The notes under the pieces were generated by a model. That model saw only the letters and a list, made by a program, of their open reading frames with translations, was not told the origin of the DNA and searched no databases. The position numbers were made by a program, and so were the translations under genes. DNA of 64,000 bases from Candidatus Cloacimonadales bacterium (GTDB lineage: Bacteria; Cloacimonadota; Cloacimonadia; Cloacimonadales; JAFGVF01), in the NCBI GenBank assembly GCA_963663475.2, contig CAXXJV010000001.1, forward strand, positions 2,112,001 through 2,176,000, given 5' to 3'. Of this stretch, positions 4,772 to 42,440 are shown one piece after another (the stretch's first letter is position 1; the number at the start of each line of letters is the position of its first letter).

Positions 4772-4846
4772 TGGCTCCGAAAGAGGGATTTGAACCCCCG
4801 ACCTAATGGTTAACAGCCATCCGCTCTACCGCTGAGCTATTTCGGA
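4772..4846 (-). tRNA. tRNA-Asn(GTT), copy 3
   Basis: TCCGAAATAGCTCAGCGGTAGAGCGGATGGCTGTTAACCATTAGGTCGGGGGTTCAAATCCCTCTTTCGGAGCCA folds as a cloverleaf with encoded CCA. Confidence 0.97.
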
Positions 4847-4889
4847 ATAAAAGATCAAAGTGTTGGCTCTCCGAAGAGAGCCTAATTTA

Positions 4890-4964
4890 TGGCTCCGAAA
4901 GAGGGATTTGAACCCCCGACCTAATGGTTAACAGCCATCCGCTCTACCGCTGAGCTATTTCGGA
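4890..4964 (-). tRNA. tRNA-Asn(GTT), copy 2
   Basis: Identical 75-nt cloverleaf. Confidence 0.97.
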
Positions 4965-5006
4965 ATAAAGATCGAAGTGTTGGCTCTCCGAAGAGAGCCT
5001 AATTTA

Positions 5007-5081
5007 TGGCTCCGAAAGAGGGATTTGAACCCCCGACCTAATGGTTAACAGCCATCCGCTCTACCGCTGAGCTATTTCGGA
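5007..5081 (-). tRNA. tRNA-Asn(GTT), copy 1
   Basis: Identical 75-nt cloverleaf. Confidence 0.97.
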
Positions 5082-30771: not shown

Positions 30772-33700
30772 ATGTTTGGAAATATTAAAAGTTATTATTG
30801 GTTGCTGATAATTGTATTATTACTTGTGGGATGTTCTAAAGAGCAAGAAAAAAAAGAAGAAAGAGTTGAGAAAATTAAATCTGATAAACAAGTTATTAAT
30901 CCACTTATGGAGCATAGCTCTCTGGGTACTAGCCTGAGGTCTGAATCACCAAGATATGAGCCAGAAGTAGAGTTTGAAGACCATAACTCATCAGCAAGTC
31001 AAGCAGTTGTTTATAGTAAGTTAAATTCCTGGAATAAGCAAAGAGATTACTATGAGATAGCTTTTAATGAAGACTTATTAGAAAATGTTTTATCTGGAAA
31101 CCTATTTAAATATATCAAGCTAAGTCCTAAAATTCCAGGAGTGTTTGAGAAAATTGATAGCAAAATAATCAGATTTTACCCTGATGATAGATTTGAAGGA
31201 GATACAGAATATAAGGTTGAGCTAAATCAAAGTGGACTCTTTGGAAAAGAAATGGCTACAGTCGAGATGTCTTTTTTCAATGACTCCCCGATTTTAAAAA
31301 TGGGACAAGTTTCTCTCTATAGTCTAGATCAAGATAATACATACTATTTAAAATTTAATATTCATCAATACAGGGGAAGTTACCTTGAAGAAGATTATAA
31401 GAATGAGCTTATGATCAATGTAGGTAATCAGAAAGTACTAGTAGCTAATGTAGAAGCTGAAGCTAATGGTCAGATGAATATTACTAGTAAGAAGTTTACA
31501 GCTTCTGGAAGAGCAAGAATACTTATTAGACCAAAAACCAAACTCTTTAACTCCCAGAGTGAAAAGGAACTATATTATTCTAACACAATAGAAGAGTTAT
31601 TAAAATTTAATATTAATAATATTGATACTATCACTGATAATCAAGGGCAGGCTAGAATAGAAATTACCTTTTCTAAAAACCTTGATACTAATCAATCATT
31701 AGCTGCTTATCTTTTCCTTGATGGACAAGAGTTTGCTAGTTCTGACATTTCCAAATTCTTCAATAAAGTTATTTTAACAGGGGATTTTATTTTAGGACAA
31801 GACTATAAGCTTGATATTAAAGCTGGAATCAGAGCATTCGATAATTCTGTTTTAAAAAAGGACATTAATAAAAAGTTAACGACCTATAACAGAGAAAGAC
31901 AACTAGAATTTGTAGATAAAGGTATTTTCTTATCAAGAAAAAATAATAATTCTACTAATATCAAGGTTATTAACTACTCAGAATTTACCTATGAGTTGTG
32001 GTCAGTCCAAGTAGATAATATAGCAGAAATGATTCATAATCTAAACTTATTCTCCTATAGTAATAATAGTAATCAAGGTTATTATAGAAGAGATAACTTA
32101 CATTGGTATGGCCAGTTACTTAAAGAAGAAAATATTGAAACTGGAGTAGAAAAAGATAAAGAAAGCTTTATCAAACTTGATTTAGGTAATGTAATTGAAC
32201 ATGATTCTAAGAAGATATATATATTAAATTTAATTGGGAAAACAGAAAATGGAGAAGACCTTAACTTAAAGAGAACAAGAAGATATTCTTGGATGAATCA
32301 TAAGGTCTCCAAGCTTCTTTTAGCTACTGATTACGCTATCACTGCCAAAGCTTTTGATAATAAAGTGGCTGTAAGGGTGGTTGATGTGCTTTCAGGACAA
32401 GCTATTTCTAGGGCTGATGTTGAGCTTAGGGCTTTTAATAATACTTTACTAGCTAGTGGTAAAACTGATAGAAATGGCTGGTTGATTCTTGATCAACTAA
32501 ACTATCCATTAGAAAATGGTGACTTTTTTATTATTGCAGAAAAAAGAGATAATATTGGCTTTCTATCTAGTCAATCAATGTATCTAGATAATTCTAAATT
32601 TAAAGTGGAAAGTAATTACTCAAATAGTGAATACAAGCTACATGCCTTCCTTGATAGAAATCTCTACAGGCCTGGTGAAGATGTAAATCTTATTGCTATG
32701 GTAAGAGATAAAAATAATGAAATAGTCCAAGAAGATATACCCCTCATAGTAACAGTCTATGATGCCAATAATACAAAAGTTATTAGTGAAAAAATTAAAG
32801 ATTTAGAAATAGGTCTTGCTACTTATAAGTTTTCAACTAAAGAAAGTTCTATGACAGGTCAATGGCAAATAGAGCTTAAATATGGATCTCTTAAAGAATA
32901 TGTTAATTTCACCCTAGAGACTTTTGTTCCTGAGAGAATTAATACTAGTATAAAAACAGATAAAGATTTCTATAATGCTAGGGATAGTAGAGCTAATCTA
33001 GAGCTAGCAAGCAAATATCTCTTTGGTGAACCTTTAGTTGATGCCCTATGTCAGGTCAATATTTCTTATAATCATGACTATTCTTTTGCTAATGATTATT
33101 TTGCTGAATATTCTTTTTATGATGATTACAAAAATTTTGATTATTCTATGTATAGCCAACAAATTACTCTTAAAACAAATAGTAATGGTAGAATAAATAC
33201 AAGAGTTGATTTGTTAAATAATAAGGAAACTTTCAGTCCTTACTTCCTCAATATTCATGCTCAAGTAACAGAAAAGGGAGGGAGACCAATTGAAAGAAAG
33301 CTTGTTTTACCTGTATCACCTCAAGAAAAGTATATTGGACTTAGCAATAACAGGTATCTTAAGGCTAAAGCAGGTGAGTTTTCTCTACCTTTCATTATTG
33401 TTGATGGAAAAGGAAATAAACTTACTGAAGCTAGTCAGATTGAATATGTAGTATATGCTAAACGTGGTTCTTGGTGGTGGGATTATGATGATTTCTATCA
33501 GTCGTCATTTAAAAACTCTGAATCTACTACTATAGTCACTAAGGGGGTAGTTACTAGTGGGAAAGACAATATAATAAAATTCACTCCTAAGTCTTCAGAC
33601 TTCCATGTTTTTATCATTGAAGCCAAGATAACTGGACAAGAAAATTATGAAATTTCCAGAAAGTACTACAATAGCTACTGGGGAGATAGTAGCGAACTAA

Positions 33701-36366
33701 CCCAAGATACTTCTCTTGAACTAAAACTTGATAAAGATGAATACCAGATTGGAGACAAAGTTAAATTAAATATCCCTAGCTCAAAGAACAGTTTGCTTTA
33801 TATAACAATATCTAAGCAAGATAAAATTCTAAAACAAGATATTGTAAAATCATCAGAAAATGGAAATTATATCTATGAGTTTACTACAGATAAGGACATG
33901 GTTCCAAATATCTACGCTGATGTAAGAGTTATTCAAGGCCAGAATGAAATTGAAAATGACTTGCCATTACGACTCTATGGTATAATTCCAATAAGAGTTA
34001 TTGATAAAGCTAGTAAACTAGATATCACCTTAGATATTCCTGAAAGAATATCATCTAACTCTAGGTTAGAAGGAAGCATTGATGTAGGTGTTAGAAAGAA
34101 AACTAAGTATATTGTTTCTGTAGTTGATCAAGGGTTAATTAACAAAACAAACTACAAAATCCCTAATCCTTGGTCATTATTCTACCAATCTGAAGCTTAT
34201 TATGGCCGTGATTTTGATAATTTCTCCTACTTTATTAATGCCCAACAATTAGATATATTTAGAAGTATTCTGATTGGTGGTGGCCTTTATGAGTCAGAGG
34301 CAAGTTTTCTTGCTATGGGTAAGGATGGCCTTGCTAGCCTAAGAGAAATGAATAGACTTCAAGAAACAGGAGTACAAAGATTTAACCCAGTTACTTACTT
34401 CCTTGGAATCTTAGAAACTGATAACAATGGTAAAGGTGATTTTCATATTGATATTGAAGATTATACTGGTAGCCTCAAGGTTTGTGTCATAGCTGTAAAT
34501 GAACAAGCCTTTGGACAAGCAACTAAATATACTATTGTTAAAGATAAAATTATAACTATGCCAACCTTACCAAGAGTTTTAACTCCTCAGGATGAAATTG
34601 AAATACCAGTAAATGTTATTATTGACGATGATATAAAGAGTCCTGTAGCAATTAGCTTATCTACTAATGAACTAGTTCAAGTGAGTTCACAAACTTCTTT
34701 TACTATCCCACAAGGAGAAAAATCTGCTTTGCTTATCTTCAAGGCTAAAGTCCTTGATAATACAGGTAAAGCTACTTTTAAATTTACTTCTAATAGTAAG
34801 AAATTTAGTGGAGAAAAGAATATCGAGATAGGGGTAAGATTACCAGCTCCTTATGAAACTGATTCACAAGTTCTAGAATTTAAAGATAACTTAATTAATT
34901 TAACTATTCCTAATAAAGGATTTGCTAACAGTAATCAAGTCTATCTTACTTTTACCCAAGGCCTAGTCTTTGATGCTGATCAGCTAGTCCAACAATCTCT
35001 TCGTTACCCTTATGGGGGAGCTGTGATGAAAACAGCGCTAACATTTAATCAACTACTCTTAAGCAACTTTGTTAAGGATATTAATTTAAGAAATAGACTT
35101 GATCAAGGTATTAACACTTACTTCCAAAATATTGTTAAATATAATCGCCAAGGCTTATACGAATGGCAAGGATCTTGGAAAGAAAGTTCAGAACGAAAAT
35201 TACTAAATATCTATGCTCTTCATACTGCCATAATTGCTAAAGAAAAAGGCTATAATATAAACGAGTTTGTTTATTCTGAAATATTGAACTATCTGTCTCA
35301 GAGTAAAACTGATAGAAAAGAGATTGATTTCGAAGATGCTTACCAACTCTATGTATTAGCCTTAGCTGGCCAAGCTGATATTGCTAAATTAAATTACTAC
35401 ATTGAGAAAAGAGGGATAAAAGTTAATAGTAATGCTATCAATATGCTGTATATGGCCTATGGTGAATCAGGCTTTGATATCAAGACAATTGAAAAAGACT
35501 TGAAACCTGTAATTGTTATTAATGATCAAATGTCTAGCAGAATTCTTAATCCTATAGAGGAAGTTCAGTCTGCTTTAGAACTCTACCTTAATTCTATATA
35601 TAAGAATAGCAATGGAGAGGATAAAGCTAAAAACATGGCTAAAGCTAACGCTATTGCTAATAAACTATCTCAAAGCAACTACTGGAATTATTATGACATG
35701 AGCTGGAACTTATTTGGATTATCTGCATATATAAGTAACCTGCCCAAAGACTTTAATGATTATCAAACTCAGGAACTGCAAGTATCATCAGCATCTGAGA
35801 CTAATAAGATTAAAGTCAATGACTTCAGCTCATTAGATTTGACTCCTTATAAAGGACAAAAACTTGAGATTAAAGGTCTTTCAAATAAAAGTGAAAATGT
35901 TATGGTTACCCTCTACAATACTTATGTTCCTAAGATTGAAGATACCAAAACATATTCAAATGATATTGAATTATTCATTACTTATCAAGACCTTGATGGA
36001 AATAAACTAGATATATCTTCTCTTAAACAAGGACAGATCTTTATTGTTAATTTCGAAGTAATTCCCAAAGAATCAAAAAATGATTTTGCTCTTACCTATA
36101 TTTTACCTTCAGGTTGGGAATTTGCTTCTCAGGATGAATCAAAGATGGTCGTTAAGCCTAACATGGCTAAACCTGAATATGTTGACCTCCGTGATGATAG
36201 AGCTATTCTCTATGGTAAGGCAAACTATTTTTCCAGAATAGGCCACCAGCTGATTATTAATGCTGTCTCTAAAGGGAAATATATTATTCCCGCAGCGTCT
36301 GTTGAAGACCTTTACAACCCTGAGATTAGAGCAAGTATCAAGGGAAAAATCATAGAAGTAAAATAA
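30772..36366 (+). CDS. Bacterial alpha-2-macroglobulin family lipoprotein
   Basis: Lipobox LVGC, DRNLYRPGE, LPRVL, YPYG region, LPSGWE and RDDR; adjacent to pbpC. Confidence 0.92.
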   Translation: MFGNIKSYYWLLIIVLLLVGCSKEQEKKEERVEKIKSDKQVINPLMEHSSLGTSLRSESPRYEPEVEFEDHNSSASQAVVYSKLNSWNKQRDYYEIAFNEDLLENVLSGNLFKYIKLSPKIPGVFEKIDSKIIRFYPDDRFEGDTEYKVELNQSGLFGKEMATVEMSFFNDSPILKMGQVSLYSLDQDNTYYLKFNIHQYRGSYLEEDYKNELMINVGNQKVLVANVEAEANGQMNITSKKFTASGRARILIRPKTKLFNSQSEKELYYSNTIEELLKFNINNIDTITDNQGQARIEITFSKNLDTNQSLAAYLFLDGQEFASSDISKFFNKVILTGDFILGQDYKLDIKAGIRAFDNSVLKKDINKKLTTYNRERQLEFVDKGIFLSRKNNNSTNIKVINYSEFTYELWSVQVDNIAEMIHNLNLFSYSNNSNQGYYRRDNLHWYGQLLKEENIETGVEKDKESFIKLDLGNVIEHDSKKIYILNLIGKTENGEDLNLKRTRRYSWMNHKVSKLLLATDYAITAKAFDNKVAVRVVDVLSGQAISRADVELRAFNNTLLASGKTDRNGWLILDQLNYPLENGDFFIIAEKRDNIGFLSSQSMYLDNSKFKVESNYSNSEYKLHAFLDRNLYRPGEDVNLIAMVRDKNNEIVQEDIPLIVTVYDANNTKVISEKIKDLEIGLATYKFSTKESSMTGQWQIELKYGSLKEYVNFTLETFVPERINTSIKTDKDFYNARDSRANLELASKYLFGEPLVDALCQVNISYNHDYSFANDYFAEYSFYDDYKNFDYSMYSQQITLKTNSNGRINTRVDLLNNKETFSPYFLNIHAQVTEKGGRPIERKLVLPVSPQEKYIGLSNNRYLKAKAGEFSLPFIIVDGKGNKLTEASQIEYVVYAKRGSWWWDYDDFYQSSFKNSESTTIVTKGVVTSGKDNIIKFTPKSSDFHVFIIEAKITGQENYEISRKYYNSYWGDSSELTQDTSLELKLDKDEYQIGDKVKLNIPSSKNSLLYITISKQDKILKQDIVKSSENGNYIYEFTTDKDMVPNIYADVRVIQGQNEIENDLPLRLYGIIPIRVIDKASKLDITLDIPERISSNSRLEGSIDVGVRKKTKYIVSVVDQGLINKTNYKIPNPWSLFYQSEAYYGRDFDNFSYFINAQQLDIFRSILIGGGLYESEASFLAMGKDGLASLREMNRLQETGVQRFNPVTYFLGILETDNNGKGDFHIDIEDYTGSLKVCVIAVNEQAFGQATKYTIVKDKIITMPTLPRVLTPQDEIEIPVNVIIDDDIKSPVAISLSTNELVQVSSQTSFTIPQGEKSALLIFKAKVLDNTGKATFKFTSNSKKFSGEKNIEIGVRLPAPYETDSQVLEFKDNLINLTIPNKGFANSNQVYLTFTQGLVFDADQLVQQSLRYPYGGAVMKTALTFNQLLLSNFVKDINLRNRLDQGINTYFQNIVKYNRQGLYEWQGSWKESSERKLLNIYALHTAIIAKEKGYNINEFVYSEILNYLSQSKTDRKEIDFEDAYQLYVLALAGQADIAKLNYYIEKRGIKVNSNAINMLYMAYGESGFDIKTIEKDLKPVIVINDQMSSRILNPIEEVQSALELYLNSIYKNSNGEDKAKNMAKANAIANKLSQSNYWNYYDMSWNLFGLSAYISNLPKDFNDYQTQELQVSSASETNKIKVNDFSSLDLTPYKGQKLEIKGLSNKSENVMVTLYNTYVPKIEDTKTYSNDIELFITYQDLDGNKLDISSLKQGQIFIVNFEVIPKESKNDFALTYILPSGWEFASQDESKMVVKPNMAKPEYVDLRDDRAILYGKANYFSRIGHQLIINAVSKGKYIIPAASVEDLYNPEIRASIKGKIIEVK

Positions 36367-36369
36367 TAC

Positions 36370-38706
36370 TTGTCTAGGTCAGAATCTTTAGTCATGATTA
36401 TGCAAAGAAAGAAAATTAAAATACTTGGTCTGCTATTAGTTATTTTTACTCTTAGTTTCTTAGGCTCAATTATTTTTATTCATGCACCTAAAGATTCTGA
36501 CTGGGACTATTCTTCTCAAATTTTAGATGAAAATGGTAAATTCTTAAGAGTTTATCTGGATGTAAATGACCAATGGCACTTAGCCTACAATGCTCCTATA
36601 CCAGAAAAATTAAAGATAGCTATTCTTCAATTTGAAGATAAACACTTCTACTCCCATCCAGGCATTAATCCCTTCTCAATACTCAGAGCTTTATATACTA
36701 ATATCTCTGCTGGGACCATAGTGAGCGGCGGTTCTACTATAACTATGCAAGTAGCTAGACTTTACTCTCAAGGAGATAGAAATCTTCTTAATAAAATAAA
36801 AGAAGCTCTTATCTCCATTAAATTAGAAGTATTGAACACTAAAGATGAAATCCTTCTCACTTACCTTAATAATGCACCTTACGGAAGCAATATTGTTGGT
36901 ATAGAGACTGCTGCTTATAAATACTATGGCAAAAAAATTCAAGAACTAACCTGGGCTGAAGCTTGCCTCTTTGCAGTCTTACCTAATAATCCTGGCTATC
37001 TATTCCCAGGTAGCAATACTAACAGACTAAAAGATAAAAGAGATAAACTTCTTAATAAACTTAAAGAACAAGGTTATCTTACTGATAATGAATACAAAAA
37101 TTCAATTAGAGAAAGGATCCCAAACAAGCATTACTCTTTCCCTCTCTTAGCCCCCCACTTAAGTGATAAACTCCACAGTCAAGGACCAGCTATCTACAAT
37201 ACCACTATTAATGGTGATTTGCAAAAGAAACTTGAAGATTTAGCTATCAGAAAAGGGTATTTATTAAATACTATGGGAATTAAGAATTTAGCAATCCTAG
37301 TTAGTGATACTAAAAATCACCAAGTAAAAGCTTATATAGGTTCTCAAAACTATTTTTCTAAATCCACTAATGGCTTTAATGATGGAGTACTTGCTTTAAG
37401 ATCCTCTGGGTCAATACTTAAACCCTTTATTTATGGATATGGACTTGAGAAAGGATTAATAACTCCTAACTCTCTCTTAGAAGATACTAAACAAAATTAT
37501 GGTATGTTACTACCCCAGAACTATGATAAGCAATATAGAGGATTAGTTACAGTTTCTCAAGCCCTACAAAAGTCACTTAATATCCCAGCTTATGAGATTA
37601 CTCAAAAAATAGGTCTCTATGATGTAACCTCAGTTCTCAAAAGTGTAGGAATGACAAGCTTGACAAGAGATCCTTCAACTTATGGTCTTTCAATCTGTGT
37701 AGGAGGAGCGGAAACTAATCTCTGGGATCTCAGTCAAATGTACCAGACTCTGGGAAATTATGGACAGTATAATAAGCTAAGTGTCCTTAAAGATAGTGAA
37801 GCTCATCAAAAGACAAGTCTGCTATCTCCTGCAAGTTCTTATCAAATTCTAGACATCTTAAGAGGTCTTAAAGTTCCTGATTCCTTTCCCGCAAATAATC
37901 TTAATATAGCTTGGAAAACGGGAACAAGTAATGGTTTTAGAGATGCTTGGGCTGTTGGACTTAATGAAGATTGGACAATTGCGGTTTGGGCAGGAAACTT
38001 CACAGGAGAAGGCAATCATAAGCTATCAGGAAGAAACATTGCAGGTGATATTCTTTTCCAAGTTGCTAGTGGTTTAATCTCTCCTCATGCTAGTTTTTTT
38101 ATAAAGCCTTGGTCTGATTTAAAACAAGTTCCAATCTGCCAAGTATCAGGGTATAGTCCAACTAAAAATTGCCAGGATACCCTTTGGATAGATGTACCCA
38201 AGAATGCTAACATATTACCTAACTGCCCTTATCATAAAAGTGTAGTTGTGGATAGTGAGGAAACAATGCAAGTATGTTCAGATTGCTGGCAAGGTATTAA
38301 ACATAAGACTATTTCTGTCTTGGACTATCCCCCTAATGTAGATTATCACCTTAAAGAAAATTCTATCACTTACCCTAAGTTACCTAAACATAATCCACAA
38401 TGCACAAGAATTCAAGAGGAAGAAAAATTAATTATTAAGTATCCAATCAACAATAGTAAAATCTATTTACCTATTGACTTGAATGGAAAAATAAACTCTT
38501 TCCAGGCTGAAGCAGTTTCTGATCATGACCAGCTATATTGGTTTCTAAATAATAAATTCTTAGGGAAAACTACTAAAGTTCATAAACTAGATATTAAAAC
38601 AAATCCTGGTAAAAAGCACTTACACCTAGTTTCTCAAGAAGGCCTTTCAACACAAATAACTTTTGAAATAATTGTTAACTCAAATAAAACCTTTAACCCA
38701 GAATAA
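36370..38706 (+). CDS. pbpC: Penicillin-binding protein 1C
   Basis: Transglycosylase FEDKHFYSHPG and SGGSTITMQ; transpeptidase SILK, SLN and KTGT; BiPBP_C-like end. Confidence 0.93.
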   Translation: MSRSESLVMIMQRKKIKILGLLLVIFTLSFLGSIIFIHAPKDSDWDYSSQILDENGKFLRVYLDVNDQWHLAYNAPIPEKLKIAILQFEDKHFYSHPGINPFSILRALYTNISAGTIVSGGSTITMQVARLYSQGDRNLLNKIKEALISIKLEVLNTKDEILLTYLNNAPYGSNIVGIETAAYKYYGKKIQELTWAEACLFAVLPNNPGYLFPGSNTNRLKDKRDKLLNKLKEQGYLTDNEYKNSIRERIPNKHYSFPLLAPHLSDKLHSQGPAIYNTTINGDLQKKLEDLAIRKGYLLNTMGIKNLAILVSDTKNHQVKAYIGSQNYFSKSTNGFNDGVLALRSSGSILKPFIYGYGLEKGLITPNSLLEDTKQNYGMLLPQNYDKQYRGLVTVSQALQKSLNIPAYEITQKIGLYDVTSVLKSVGMTSLTRDPSTYGLSICVGGAETNLWDLSQMYQTLGNYGQYNKLSVLKDSEAHQKTSLLSPASSYQILDILRGLKVPDSFPANNLNIAWKTGTSNGFRDAWAVGLNEDWTIAVWAGNFTGEGNHKLSGRNIAGDILFQVASGLISPHASFFIKPWSDLKQVPICQVSGYSPTKNCQDTLWIDVPKNANILPNCPYHKSVVVDSEETMQVCSDCWQGIKHKTISVLDYPPNVDYHLKENSITYPKLPKHNPQCTRIQEEEKLIIKYPINNSKIYLPIDLNGKINSFQAEAVSDHDQLYWFLNNKFLGKTTKVHKLDIKTNPGKKHLHLVSQEGLSTQITFEIIVNSNKTFNPE

Positions 38707-39718: not shown

Positions 39719-39854
39719 AAAGTATATTTTAACTTAAAAAACACTAATCTCTAGCTTTATTTCATAGCAAGCTATGGGGATTTATAGGAAAAAATACTGG
39801 ACTGTTTTTCTTTAACATTATTTATTGTTATTCAATCTATTTTTCGGAGGATGT

Positions 39855-40853
39855 ATGAATAGAAAAGTTTCTTTAACTGGTATAAAACCAACTGGTATGC
39901 CACATCTTGGCAACTTTGTTGGTTCAATCAGACCTGCTTTGGAGCTGGCAAAAGATTATGATGCTCGTTACTTTATTGCAGATTATCATGCTTTAAATCA
40001 AATAAAAGACCCAAAAAAAATAAGAGATATGACTTTTGAGGTAGCTTCAGCTTGGTTAGCTTGTGGTTTAGACCCCCAACAAGTTCTCTTTTATCGTCAA
40101 TCAGATGTTCCTGAAACCTTTGAGCTAGCTATCGCCTTAATGGCCTTCACTCCTAAAGGTTTAATGAATAGAGCCCATGCCTACAAGGCTATTGTTCAAA
40201 AAAATGAAGAAGAAGGAAACCCTCTTGATGATGGGGTAAATATTGGTCTCTTTACTTATCCTGTCTTAATGGCTGCTGATATTCTACTTTTTGACGCTGA
40301 TATAGTCCCTGTAGGTAAAGACCAACTTCAACACATTGAAATGGCAAATGATATTGCCCAATCCCTAAACTTCAACTATAAAGAAGAAATTCTTAAACTA
40401 CCAAAACCTTATACCCATGCTGATGCTGGTATTATTGTCGGACTAGATGGTAGAAAAATGAGTAAAAGTTACAACAATGAAATTTCTCTCTTCCTACCAG
40501 AAAAGAAACTTAGAAAAACTATTATGAAAATAGTTACTAATTCTCAGACTATTGAAGAAGTTAAAGATCCTGACCAGTGCAATGTCTTCTCTCTTTATAA
40601 AGTCTTTGCCACACCTGACCAACAAGCTGAACTAAGAAAAAGATATTTAGCTGGTGGAATGGGTTGGGGAGAGGCAAAACAAGCCCTCTTTGAAGCAGTA
40701 AATGACCAACTAAAAGAACCAAGAGAAAAATATTTTGACCTATTAGAGAATAGAGACTATGTTGATAAGATCTTGATTGAAGGTGCTGAAAAAGCGAGAG
40801 ATATAGCTTCAGCTACCATTAAAAGATTAAGAAAATCTATCGGTATTGATTAA
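39855..40853 (+). CDS. trpS: Tryptophan--tRNA ligase
   Basis: TGIKPTG.PHLGN, YPVLMAADIL, VPVGKDQ and KMSKS; SD GGAGG before the ATG at 39855. Confidence 0.97.
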   Translation: MNRKVSLTGIKPTGMPHLGNFVGSIRPALELAKDYDARYFIADYHALNQIKDPKKIRDMTFEVASAWLACGLDPQQVLFYRQSDVPETFELAIALMAFTPKGLMNRAHAYKAIVQKNEEEGNPLDDGVNIGLFTYPVLMAADILLFDADIVPVGKDQLQHIEMANDIAQSLNFNYKEEILKLPKPYTHADAGIIVGLDGRKMSKSYNNEISLFLPEKKLRKTIMKIVTNSQTIEEVKDPDQCNVFSLYKVFATPDQQAELRKRYLAGGMGWGEAKQALFEAVNDQLKEPREKYFDLLENRDYVDKILIEGAEKARDIASATIKRLRKSIGID

Positions 40854-40937: not shown

Positions 40938-41318
40938 ATGGAAATATTTCTTTTAGTAATACATATACTTATTAGTATTGCTTTGGTCTTATTGATCTTA
41001 GCTCAAACTTCTAAGGGTAATGGATTAGATAGTAATTTAGGCGGAGCTGCTTCTAACGTTTTTGGAAGTTCTGCTTCTGAAATGTTGAAAAAATGGACTC
41101 AGATTATCGGAGGACTTTTCTTGATCTCTTGTGTCTTCTTAGCTATTAATGTTAAGTCAGGTAAGTCAGTTGATAATGTTGCTCCAGCATCAACAGGTCA
41201 AGTCAACACTCAAGAGACTTCACCTGCACAAGAATTAGATCTCGAAGAAGGCGATATTCAGGAAATACCTGCTACTGAAGAAACTTCAGAAACAGCAAGT
41301 GAAACACCTGTAAGATAA
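40938..41318 (+). CDS. secG: Preprotein translocase subunit SecG
   Basis: Two TM helices separated by a Q.SKG.GL...GG....FG loop; followed by tRNA-Leu. Confidence 0.9.
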   Translation: MEIFLLVIHILISIALVLLILAQTSKGNGLDSNLGGAASNVFGSSASEMLKKWTQIIGGLFLISCVFLAINVKSGKSVDNVAPASTGQVNTQETSPAQELDLEEGDIQEIPATEETSETASETPVR

Positions 41319-41329
41319 AACTTTTAAAA

Positions 41330-41417
41330 GCAGGAGTGGTGGAATTGGCAGACACGCAAGACTAAGGATCTTGTGCCCATTGCGGGTGTGCGGGTTCAAG
41401 TCCCGCCTTCTGCACCA
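41330..41417 (+). tRNA. tRNA-Leu with anticodon AAG
   Basis: Acceptor GCAGGAG/CTTCTGC plus ACCA, long variable arm, anticodon stem CAAGA/TCTTG with loop CT-AAG-GA, T-loop GTTCAAGTC. Confidence 0.95.
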
Positions 41418-41422
41418 AACTT

Positions 41423-41449
41423 AAAAGCCCAACATTGTTGGGCTTTTTT
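41423..41449 (+). terminator. Terminator after tRNA-Leu (potentially bidirectional)
   Basis: AAAAGCCCAAC/GTTGGGCTTTT followed by T run. Confidence 0.85.
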
Positions 41450-41465
41450 GCTATTAAGAATTAAG

Positions 41466-41579: not shown

Positions 41580-42440
41580 CTAGCTTGTAATTCCATGGTT
41601 ATCACGTTCAGCATTTTGATTTAAAGGTTCCCATAATTCAAGCTTATTTCCTTCTATATCAAGAATATGTACAAATTTTCCATAATCGTAGGTTACTATC
41701 TTATCTAGGATTTTAACTCCATTTGCTTTCATTTCTTCAACTAAAGATTCAAGGTTTTCAACACGGTAGTTAATCATAAAATCTTTTTCAGAAGGAGTAA
41801 AATAATCAGTTTTTTCATCAAATGGAGACCATTGAGTATAGGCAATATTCTCTTTATCAGGGTATTGACACCACTTGAAGCTTGTACCATATTCATCTGT
41901 GTTAAGTCCAAGGTGTTTAGAATACCATTCTTTAACCTTATAAGGGTCTTTAGATTTGAAAAAAATACCTCCAATACCACGAACTTTTTTAGACTTGTCT
42001 GCTATTTGAGATTTTGGCTCAACAATAATCATCCAGTTTATTCCAAACTTATCGGTAAATTGACCAAAATAATCACCCCAGAAGGCATCTCTCATTGGTG
42101 ATTGAATTTTACCATCCTTAGATAAGGCTCTAAAAAGTCTATCTGCCTCATTTTTAGAATCACTTGTAATAGATATTGAGAAGTTGTTCCCATGCTGAAA
42201 AGCTCCACTATTATCTTCAATATTATCGCAACCCATTAAGCTTGTCTCTTGACTAATTGGTAAGCTAACATGCAAGATTTTATTAGCATGCTTTGAATCA
42301 ATAGCTGGAAAAGCAGCTTGAGAGGGAATATCTTTGAAACGACTAAGATAGGTGAATTCCTTGCCAAAAACAGATTTGTAAAAGGTAAAGGCTTCTTCGC
42401 AATTACCATCAAAATTAAGATATACATTAACAGTGGTCAT
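41580..42440 (-). CDS. Two-domain VOC protein (PhnB-like plus glyoxalase/bleomycin-resistance-like)
   Basis: YLNFDGNCEEAF.FY...FWGDYFGQFTDKFGINW, then GIGGIFFK...YGKFVHILDIEGNKLELWEP. Confidence 0.85.
   Translation of the reverse strand: MTTVNVYLNFDGNCEEAFTFYKSVFGKEFTYLSRFKDIPSQAAFPAIDSKHANKILHVSLPISQETSLMGCDNIEDNSGAFQHGNNFSISITSDSKNEADRLFRALSKDGKIQSPMRDAFWGDYFGQFTDKFGINWMIIVEPKSQIADKSKKVRGIGGIFFKSKDPYKVKEWYSKHLGLNTDEYGTSFKWCQYPDKENIAYTQWSPFDEKTDYFTPSEKDFMINYRVENLESLVEEMKANGVKILDKIVTYDYGKFVHILDIEGNKLELWEPLNQNAERDNHGITS

Follow-up and report, generated by a model that had tools for sequence, protein, structure and literature searches.

The window analysed here, 64,000 nucleotides from a Candidatus Cloacimonadales bacterium, carries a gene for a leucine tRNA with the anticodon AAG, hereafter tRNA-Leu(AAG), directly downstream of secG (Table 1). 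The first-pass annotation had described an intact leucine tRNA with a long variable arm, discriminator A, CCA and a terminator at the secG locus, and each of these features is borne out. The AAG anticodon is read directly in the arm and agrees with the ARAGORN call, Leu(aag); Rfam RF00005 matches the gene at 53.3 bits (cut-off 29) and places an insertion in the variable arm, and the discriminator A and CCA end at position 41417. The open reading frame (ORF) that ends 11 bases before the tRNA is SecG by TIGR00810, above the cut-off. The hairpin downstream is one of two terminator-like sites found, against 0.4 expected in shuffles, and the terminator region (41418-41455) has a fold energy of -15.4 kcal/mol. 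No promoter-like site was found on the plus strand between 40800 and 41600. tRNA-Leu(AAG) is probably transcribed with secG, and would be expressed as a mature tRNA and charged with leucine.

Table 1. Features of the tRNA-Leu(AAG) locus and the tadA-like gene of the same genome. Positions refer to the window unless a contig is given.
Feature	Position	Strand	Basis
tRNA-Leu(AAG), 88 nt, long variable arm, discriminator A, encoded CCA	41330-41417	+	ARAGORN, Rfam RF00005, sequence
Anticodon arm CAAGA-CT AAG GA-TCTTG	41357-41373	+	Sequence
Anticodon AAG; A34 at 41364, predicted inosine site	41364-41366	+	Sequence (editing predicted)
secG, conserved neighbour	40938-41318	+	TIGR00810, 61.1 bits, cut-off 30.85
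Intrinsic-terminator-like hairpin, 11 pairs, T-rich tail	41423-41447	+	Terminator search
trpS, upstream of secG (context)	39825-40853	+	ORF; TIGR00233, 292 bits, cut-off 176.75
tadA-like gene, single, 148 aa, directly before tRNA-Ser(CGA)	G000:C1 2247794-2248240	-	Profile and structure-database matches

Several other features of the window deserve mention. On the minus strand, three identical tRNA-Asn(GTT) genes stand in tandem (4772-5081), and a 286-aa ORF (41580-42440) combines a glyoxalase/PhnB-like N-terminal domain with an apparent second glyoxalase-type domain, possibly a fusion of two small genes. On the plus strand (30772-38706), a gene for a bacterial alpha-2-macroglobulin of 1864 aa precedes one for a PBP1C-like transglycosylase/transpeptidase; the two form a known pair.

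The source genome (G000) comprises 3.30 Mb in 2 contigs at 33% GC and is 99.24% complete. Its 57 tRNA genes, as called by ARAGORN, include a leucine set of TAG, CAA, TAA (two genes) and AAG; neither Leu(GAG) nor Leu(CAG) is among them. The only A34 tRNA besides Leu(AAG) is Arg(ACG), and an Arg(CCG) gene is present. tRNA-Leu(AAG) would be the only leucine tRNA with a purine at position 34 serving the CUN box in this cell. A relaxed ARAGORN run that allowed introns gave 2,693 calls, mostly spurious, and was ignored. A tRNA-Sec(TCA) gene was called outside the window (G000:C1 2349691-2349785), so the organism probably makes selenoproteins.

Distribution of tRNA-Leu(AAG)

From a 41-genome DNA search the 30 loci with the best matches were taken, from the source genome and 29 others; the anticodon is AAG at every one, and 29 of the 30 have a secG-like match adjoining the tRNA. 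The gene is identical over all 88 bases in two genomes of the same genus and differs by 2 of 88 letters in a Candidatus Cloacimonadota record (L136); further named Cloacimonadota records hold a near-identical tRNA (L097, L105, L120, L128 and L161). With a strict pattern of 22 letters that had zero control matches, the AAG arm was found in 195 of 232 Cloacimonadota genomes, including 144 of the 151 good ones and members of all 17 families. A first, looser pattern was discarded for counting since its control matches were as frequent as the real ones. When ten non-matching genomes were searched again by DNA, four proved to carry the AAG gene with a variant D arm (G224, G225, G227 and G228), and the search of the other six gave other leucine tRNA genes only. 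The near-phylum-wide tRNA-Leu(AAG) is a real and conserved gene, and the A34 anticodon, which the first-pass annotation ascribed to a switch, is lineage-wide rather than a private mutation.

A corresponding GAG pattern, which may miss D-arm variants, matched five of the 232 genomes, and ARAGORN confirmed Leu(GAG) in two of them. Both of these genes (L039 = G113:C56 and L042 = G033:C42) have a different body and lie away from secG on contigs of less than 8 kb, and in G033 Leu(AAG) is present alongside; the two may be foreign or misbinned. In this genome and lineage, AAG replaces Leu(GAG).

Some loci show local rearrangements. Two identical tandem Leu(AAG) copies occur at L008 (G023) and L026 (G020), with a secG-like match between the copies in L026. 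In families f16 and f17 (L583, L584, L592, L593, L512, L513 and L519), Leu(AAG) is followed in tandem on the same strand by Arg(ACG), giving two predicted substrates of the tRNA adenosine deaminase TadA side by side.

Outside this phylum, Leu(AAG) is much commoner than the first-pass annotation or the papers cited here imply. A pattern scan of GTDB listed 120 matches, all of them called Leu(AAG) by ARAGORN, and by record title these comprise at least 26 Lactobacillales, 26 other Bacillota, 18 Verrucomicrobiota, 10 Proteobacteria, 7 Cloacimonadota, 7 Cyanobacteria, 6 Actinomycetota, 4 Synergistota and 16 others. The statement that Leu(AAG) is known mainly from some lactic-acid Firmicutes is not supported by this spread over many phyla, with 26 of the 120 listed matches in Lactobacillales. 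A metagenome scan that accepted either purine at position 34 listed 119 loci, namely 109 GAG, 8 AAG and 2 without a tRNA call, so that AAG accounts for 8 of the 117 Leu(RAG) tRNAs among the matches listed. Both scans are samples of the matches listed, not a census. Published accounts place almost all bacterial Leu(AAG) genes in Bacilli, with further cases in Mycoplasma and Prochlorococcus (PMC13249217), or find Firmicutes dominant in a GtRNAdb survey whose preprint text does not mention Cloacimonadota (bioRxiv 10.64898/2026.05.15.725136). Our literature search did not find Leu(AAG) in Cloacimonadota, although survey tables, supplements or GtRNAdb may list a Cloacimonas gene; where the literature found on tRNA inosine names the phylum, it does so for tRNA-Trp only.

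The anticodon loop and the origin of the gene

The loop of tRNA-Leu(AAG) is remodelled beyond its anticodon. The 109 listed Leu(GAG) genes from metagenomes carry the loops TT-GAG-GG (75), TT-GAG-GT (33) and CT-GAG-GG (1), and the 120 listed Leu(AAG) genes from GTDB carry CT-AAG-GA (87), TT-AAG-GA (11), TT-AAG-GG (20) and TT-AAG-GT (2). A38 is thus present in 98 of the 120 listed Leu(AAG) against 0 of the 109 listed Leu(GAG), and C32 in 87 against 1; A38 also occurs in 65 of the 87 listed Leu(AAG) outside Lactobacillales and Cloacimonadota, and G38 or T38 is retained in 22 of the 120. The change therefore exceeds G34A, and the simple G34-to-A34 switch of the first-pass annotation understates it, as the bases at 32 and 38 are also unlike those of Leu(GAG).

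The same loop is found, with a single difference, in Arg(ACG) of the phylum, the normal kind of TadA substrate. The Arg(ACG) arm GACTACGGATC (GA-CT ACG GA-TC) was found, by a pattern that allowed A or G at position 37, in 103 of 114 Cloacimonadota genomes and was the same in all 104 matches; it shares 10 of its 11 inner bases with the Leu(AAG) arm, the sole difference being position 35. The Leu loop, CUAAGGA, also matches the TadA editing consensus YUAMGRA (PMC11472039). C32 and A38 are likewise found in Leu(TAG) tRNAs of Cloacimonadota, so the loop need not be an adaptation to TadA.

Three other groups contain both anticodons (counts taken from pattern-match tables, with unpaired chance rows left out), and because kin share their history, the counts run higher than the number of events behind them, which is a handful. 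In Fermentibacterota, 53 of 61 genomes matched, with 7 TT-GAG-GG, 36 TT-AAG-GA and 10 CT-AAG-GA; the GAG and AAG bodies are near-identical, and all 7 GAG genes have G38 and all 46 AAG genes A38. By tblastn, secG adjoins six of seven GAG loci and two of four AAG loci, and at L312 a SecG-like ORF stops 6 bases short of the AAG gene. In Synergistota, 96 of 101 genomes matched and never with both forms: all 47 GAG genes are TT-GAG-GG and all 49 AAG genes CT-AAG-GA, and the two forms share their acceptor and T stems and the same upstream ribosomal-protein gene, which we take to be L19-like. In Verrucomicrobiia, 117 of 121 genomes matched, with 88 GAG and 29 AAG genes (23 with A38, 6 with G38).

As no GAG orthologue was found inside Cloacimonadota, the direction of change has to be taken from other phyla. 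The Fermentibacterota pairs favour an in-place switch, by which tRNA-Leu(AAG) would descend from a secG-linked GAG gene; the same secG position holds Leu(GAG) in Fermentibacterota, in keeping with the earlier remark that the tRNA after secG is usually Leu(GAG). The alternative, which would fit either mode of decoding, is that the gene derives from Leu(CAG) or Leu(TAG), as a copy or through gene conversion, and later took the place of Leu(GAG) next to secG. Identity to tRNA-Leu(AAG) is 0.74-0.82 for twelve Leu(CAG) genes of Cloacimonadota, several with the same acceptor stem; the sampled Leu(GAG) reach at most 0.81, with a median of 0.69. Since Leu(CAG) is as similar as any sampled GAG gene, and AAG and CAG genes stand in tandem with the same anticodon stem in G203, we give this course some weight. 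Against it, the secG-linked gene of Fermentibacterota occurs as GAG and AAG with a near-identical body, its AAG form is itself 0.82 identical to tRNA-Leu(AAG), and the Synergistota genes keep their neighbour and stems across the two anticodons. An origin from Leu(CAG) or Leu(TAG), by either course, accordingly appears unlikely, although a serious contender. In the G203 tandem (L511; G203:C1, ~626080-626270), Leu(AAG) and Leu(CAG) follow secG and have the stem CAAGA/TCTTG in common, possibly through duplication or gene conversion.

The scans also brought out a second class of Leu(AAG) with a GAG-type loop, TT-AAG-GG, which makes up 20 of the 120 listed genes and includes several in Clostridia and one Verrucomicrobiia group (for example L046, L065, L078, L115, L132, L146 and L152, and genomes G403, G427, G451 and G457). 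These genes are candidates, by their loops, for unedited A34. Among five genomes of this class with a TadA-like gene, three have a changed D104 or K106 position.

TadA and the reading of CUN codons

The first-pass annotation had offered two modes of decoding, a TadA of widened specificity that yields IAG or superwobble by an unmodified A34. A TadA is present. That of the source genome has the catalytic and zinc motifs HAE and PCxxC, every one of its top PDB matches is a TadA (from S. aureus, E. coli and others; S. aureus best, E 6.9e-33), and it scores 134.1 against NCBIfam TadA, below the cut-off of 150. TadA was found in 210 of 232 Cloacimonadota genomes and in 149 of the 151 good ones. Residues were surveyed in 54 of these enzymes (55 tried of the 210, 30 of them chosen as best matches), with S. 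aureus numbering mapped from an alignment to the TadA of the source genome. D104 and K106 are present in all 54; the R94 position holds R in 51 and K in 3, and the R149 position R in 53 and K in 1. The R70 position is aromatic throughout (Y 29, F 21, W 4), the R44 position is never R and is T in 50, and at the G22 position R is absent and 52 of the enzymes have D, N or G. The canonical set of backbone-binding residues, R44, R70, R94, K106 and R149 (PMC10586758), is therefore incomplete, with R44 and R70 lost; E. coli TadA also lacks R44, and a narrower position-35 pocket has been attributed, as a suggestion, to its R26 (PMC10586758). R70 contacts the tRNA backbone at G36/G37, and K106 and N123 contact the C32-A38 pair; the TadA of Mycoplasma capricolum, which may edit more weakly, has R70N among the changes associated with this (PMC3711424).

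No single TadA change accompanies Leu(AAG) in the lineages surveyed, however distinctive the Cloacimonadota enzyme is by its residues. Fermentibacterota TadA has the same residues at R44, R70, R94, D104 and K106 in AAG and GAG genomes, with R70 kept in 39 of 39 AAG and 7 of 7 GAG genomes (two unparsed and two without a Leu match excluded), so there is no clear need for a TadA of widened specificity. R70 is also kept in all 13 single AAG genomes of other lineages, Streptococcus included, and a universal TadA signature for Leu(AAG) was ruled out on these counts. In Synergistota the R70 position is N in 38 and K in 2 of 40 AAG genomes, against R in 25 of 28 GAG genomes. In a quick tree most AAG rows fell into one group (support 81) that also took in two GAG rows; the R70 change in the Synergistota AAG genomes is probably about one event. 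Also in Synergistota TadA (L408-L423), N occupies the D104 position in 12 of the 40 from AAG genomes, and many lack two residues after N42; D108N of E. coli TadA is a change known from base editors (PMC10586758). Of the two modes offered, inosine is the one we favour, though not necessarily with the widening of TadA that had been tied to it.

We consider it likely that tRNA-Leu(AAG) is edited by TadA to IAG and reads CUU, CUC and CUA, standing in for the lost Leu(GAG). A34 would be deaminated by the housekeeping TadA, which would recognize the C32...A38 frame as it does in Arg(ACG); position 35 is barely contacted by TadA, and with the Leu and Arg loops alike but for this position recognition is proposed to work. 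E. coli TadA no longer edited when position 32, 37 or 38 was altered (PMC11066159). In Streptococcus pyogenes, Leu(AAG) is fully edited, by its own TadA but not by that of E. coli (PMC11472039), and editing of Leu(AAG) is also described for S. mutans, with the TadA of S. mutans and S. pneumoniae (PMC13249217). The loop CU-AAG-GA is the same in Streptococcus Leu(AAG) (L060). Points against IAG include the subthreshold TadA score, the loss of R44 and R70, and the behaviour of E. coli TadA, with which editing of an AAG tRNA reached about 15% when it had A37 and was nil when it had G37 (PMC11066159); in Oenococcus oeni only two of four A34 tRNAs are edited (cited in PMC11066159).

Codon use bears on the same question. 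In 2,063 long ORFs of the source genome, obtained by simple ORF calling, the leucine codons are TTA 0.40, CTT 0.24, CTA 0.15, TTG 0.09, CTC 0.07 and CTG 0.05; there is no GAG-bearing sister within the phylum against which a shift from UUA to CUU and CUC could be compared. The frequent CTT codons had been taken to fit either mode of decoding, but they lend support to neither: CTT makes up 0.48 of the CTN box, within the T-ending share of 0.46-0.58 in the other four-codon boxes, and an enrichment of CTT was rejected because the box follows AT bias. The C share of CTY is 0.23, against 0.14-0.21 in six G34 boxes. Nine relatives were sampled at 12-80 kb each; in the five at 49-52% GC, CTC makes up 58-75% of CTT and CTC, and in the other four its share of CTY is 0.15-0.52. 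The CTC-rich usage of the GC-rich relatives indicates that CUC is read well without a G34 tRNA.

The pairing of bases 32 and 38 tunes decoding, and this forms part of the principal alternative to editing. A34 may stay unmodified or be edited only in part, CUU being read by A34 and CUC by A34 wobble together with the U34 of Leu(UAG), with the C32-A38 pair serving decoding rather than TadA binding. In some boxes, codons ending in C are indeed read by unedited A34 (Pro 56:44), and an unedited AAG tRNA in E. coli prefers U over C by 87:13 (PMC11066159). The loss of R44 and R70 in this TadA also speaks for this alternative. RNA libraries of a relative (G014, locus L015) gave 23 matching runs, all of them assembled contigs, of which four were examined; contigs from X15, X3 and X6 have A at the anticodon position (L015:1539). 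Among the differences listed, X15 has none from L015 and X6 has one A>G, at 1461. One contig spans secG through the tRNA, so these contigs look like precursor or DNA. Unedited A34 sits poorly with CTC exceeding CTT in GC-rich members and with the lack of any deficit relative to other four-codon boxes; moreover, the same TadA must serve the near-identical loop of Arg(ACG) in 103 of 114 genomes, and S. pyogenes edits this very loop to completion (PMC11472039). We judge an unmodified or partly edited A34 to be improbable. That the anticodon reflects a sequencing error, a private mutation or a pseudogene has next to no probability, since AAG stands at each of the 30 loci compared and in 195 of 232 genomes, the structure is intact, the source genome has no G34 tRNA for CUC, and error is excluded by the relatives, not by the genome's own reads.

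Comparison with known systems

Taken together with the other phyla, editing of tRNA-Leu(AAG) would place Cloacimonadota in a wider pattern. Rather than a peculiarity of lactic acid bacteria, Leu(IAG) may be a repeated and predictable route of bacterial tRNA change, in which G34A and G38A, then U32C, mimic the Arg(ACG) loop for an existing TadA, Cloacimonadota being a phylum fixed in the end state; we offer this tentatively, at somewhat less than an even chance. How TadA co-evolves with its tRNAs is a question raised in the field (PMC11472039), and GAG/AAG orthologues at one locus provide natural pairs in which to study what the loop has to change, if TadA must change with it, and if codon usage shifts in turn. 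If the reading is true, the aromatic-R70 TadA of Cloacimonadota may accept a broader set of substrates, UAAG sites in mRNA among them. The gene is also relevant to codon-adaptation and tRNA-seq work on anaerobic-digester organisms.

Relative to Arg(ACG/ICG) and TadA of E. coli and S. aureus (PDB 2B3J, 1Z3A), the Leu loop keeps C32, U33, A34, G36 and A38 but has A35 in place of C35. E. coli TadA leaves S. pyogenes Leu(AAG) unedited (PMC11472039); the Cloacimonadota enzyme keeps D104, K106, R94 and R149 and lacks the equivalents of R44 and R70. A34 tRNAs that are unmodified or partly modified, such as Mollicutes Arg(ACG) with a degenerate TadA (PMC3711424) and engineered tRNAs (PMC11066159), are alike in having A34 in a four-codon box, and loss of R70 is common to Cloacimonadota and M. 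capricolum TadA (PMC3711424). M. capricolum TadA is, however, changed at D104 and R94 (PMC3711424), where Cloacimonadota keep D104 and R94 (or K), and unlike in Mollicutes Arg(CCG) is present in the source genome and the genomes are not reduced.

The closest likeness is to Leu(AAG) edited to IAG in Lactobacillales (S. pyogenes, PMC11472039; S. mutans and S. pneumoniae, PMC13249217; Oenococcus oeni, cited there), with which the Cloacimonadota gene shares the anticodon and the loop CU-AAG-GA. In both, Leu(GAG) is replaced lineage-wide, Leu(UAG) is kept and there is one TadA per genome. The Cloacimonadota gene differs in being near-phylum-wide and secG-linked, that of Lactobacillales occurring in some families, and its editing is predicted from sequence. 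Cloacimonadota Arg(ACG) has G37, so that the Leu and Arg loops differ at position 35 only, whereas those of S. pyogenes differ at 35 and 37 (PMC11472039). Cloacimonadota TadA has an aromatic residue at R70, which Streptococcus oralis TadA keeps, and that of the source genome is without a long C-terminal extension; nor does this genome, with TTA at 0.40 of leucine codons, have a genome-wide enrichment of CTT and CTC like the Lactobacillales recoding (PMC13249217). As the mechanism itself is already known from Lactobacillales, the gain lies in breadth and testability rather than in a new kind of system: a phylum with the gene, GAG/AAG orthologue pairs, the link between A34 and A38 and, by its residues, a distinctive TadA.
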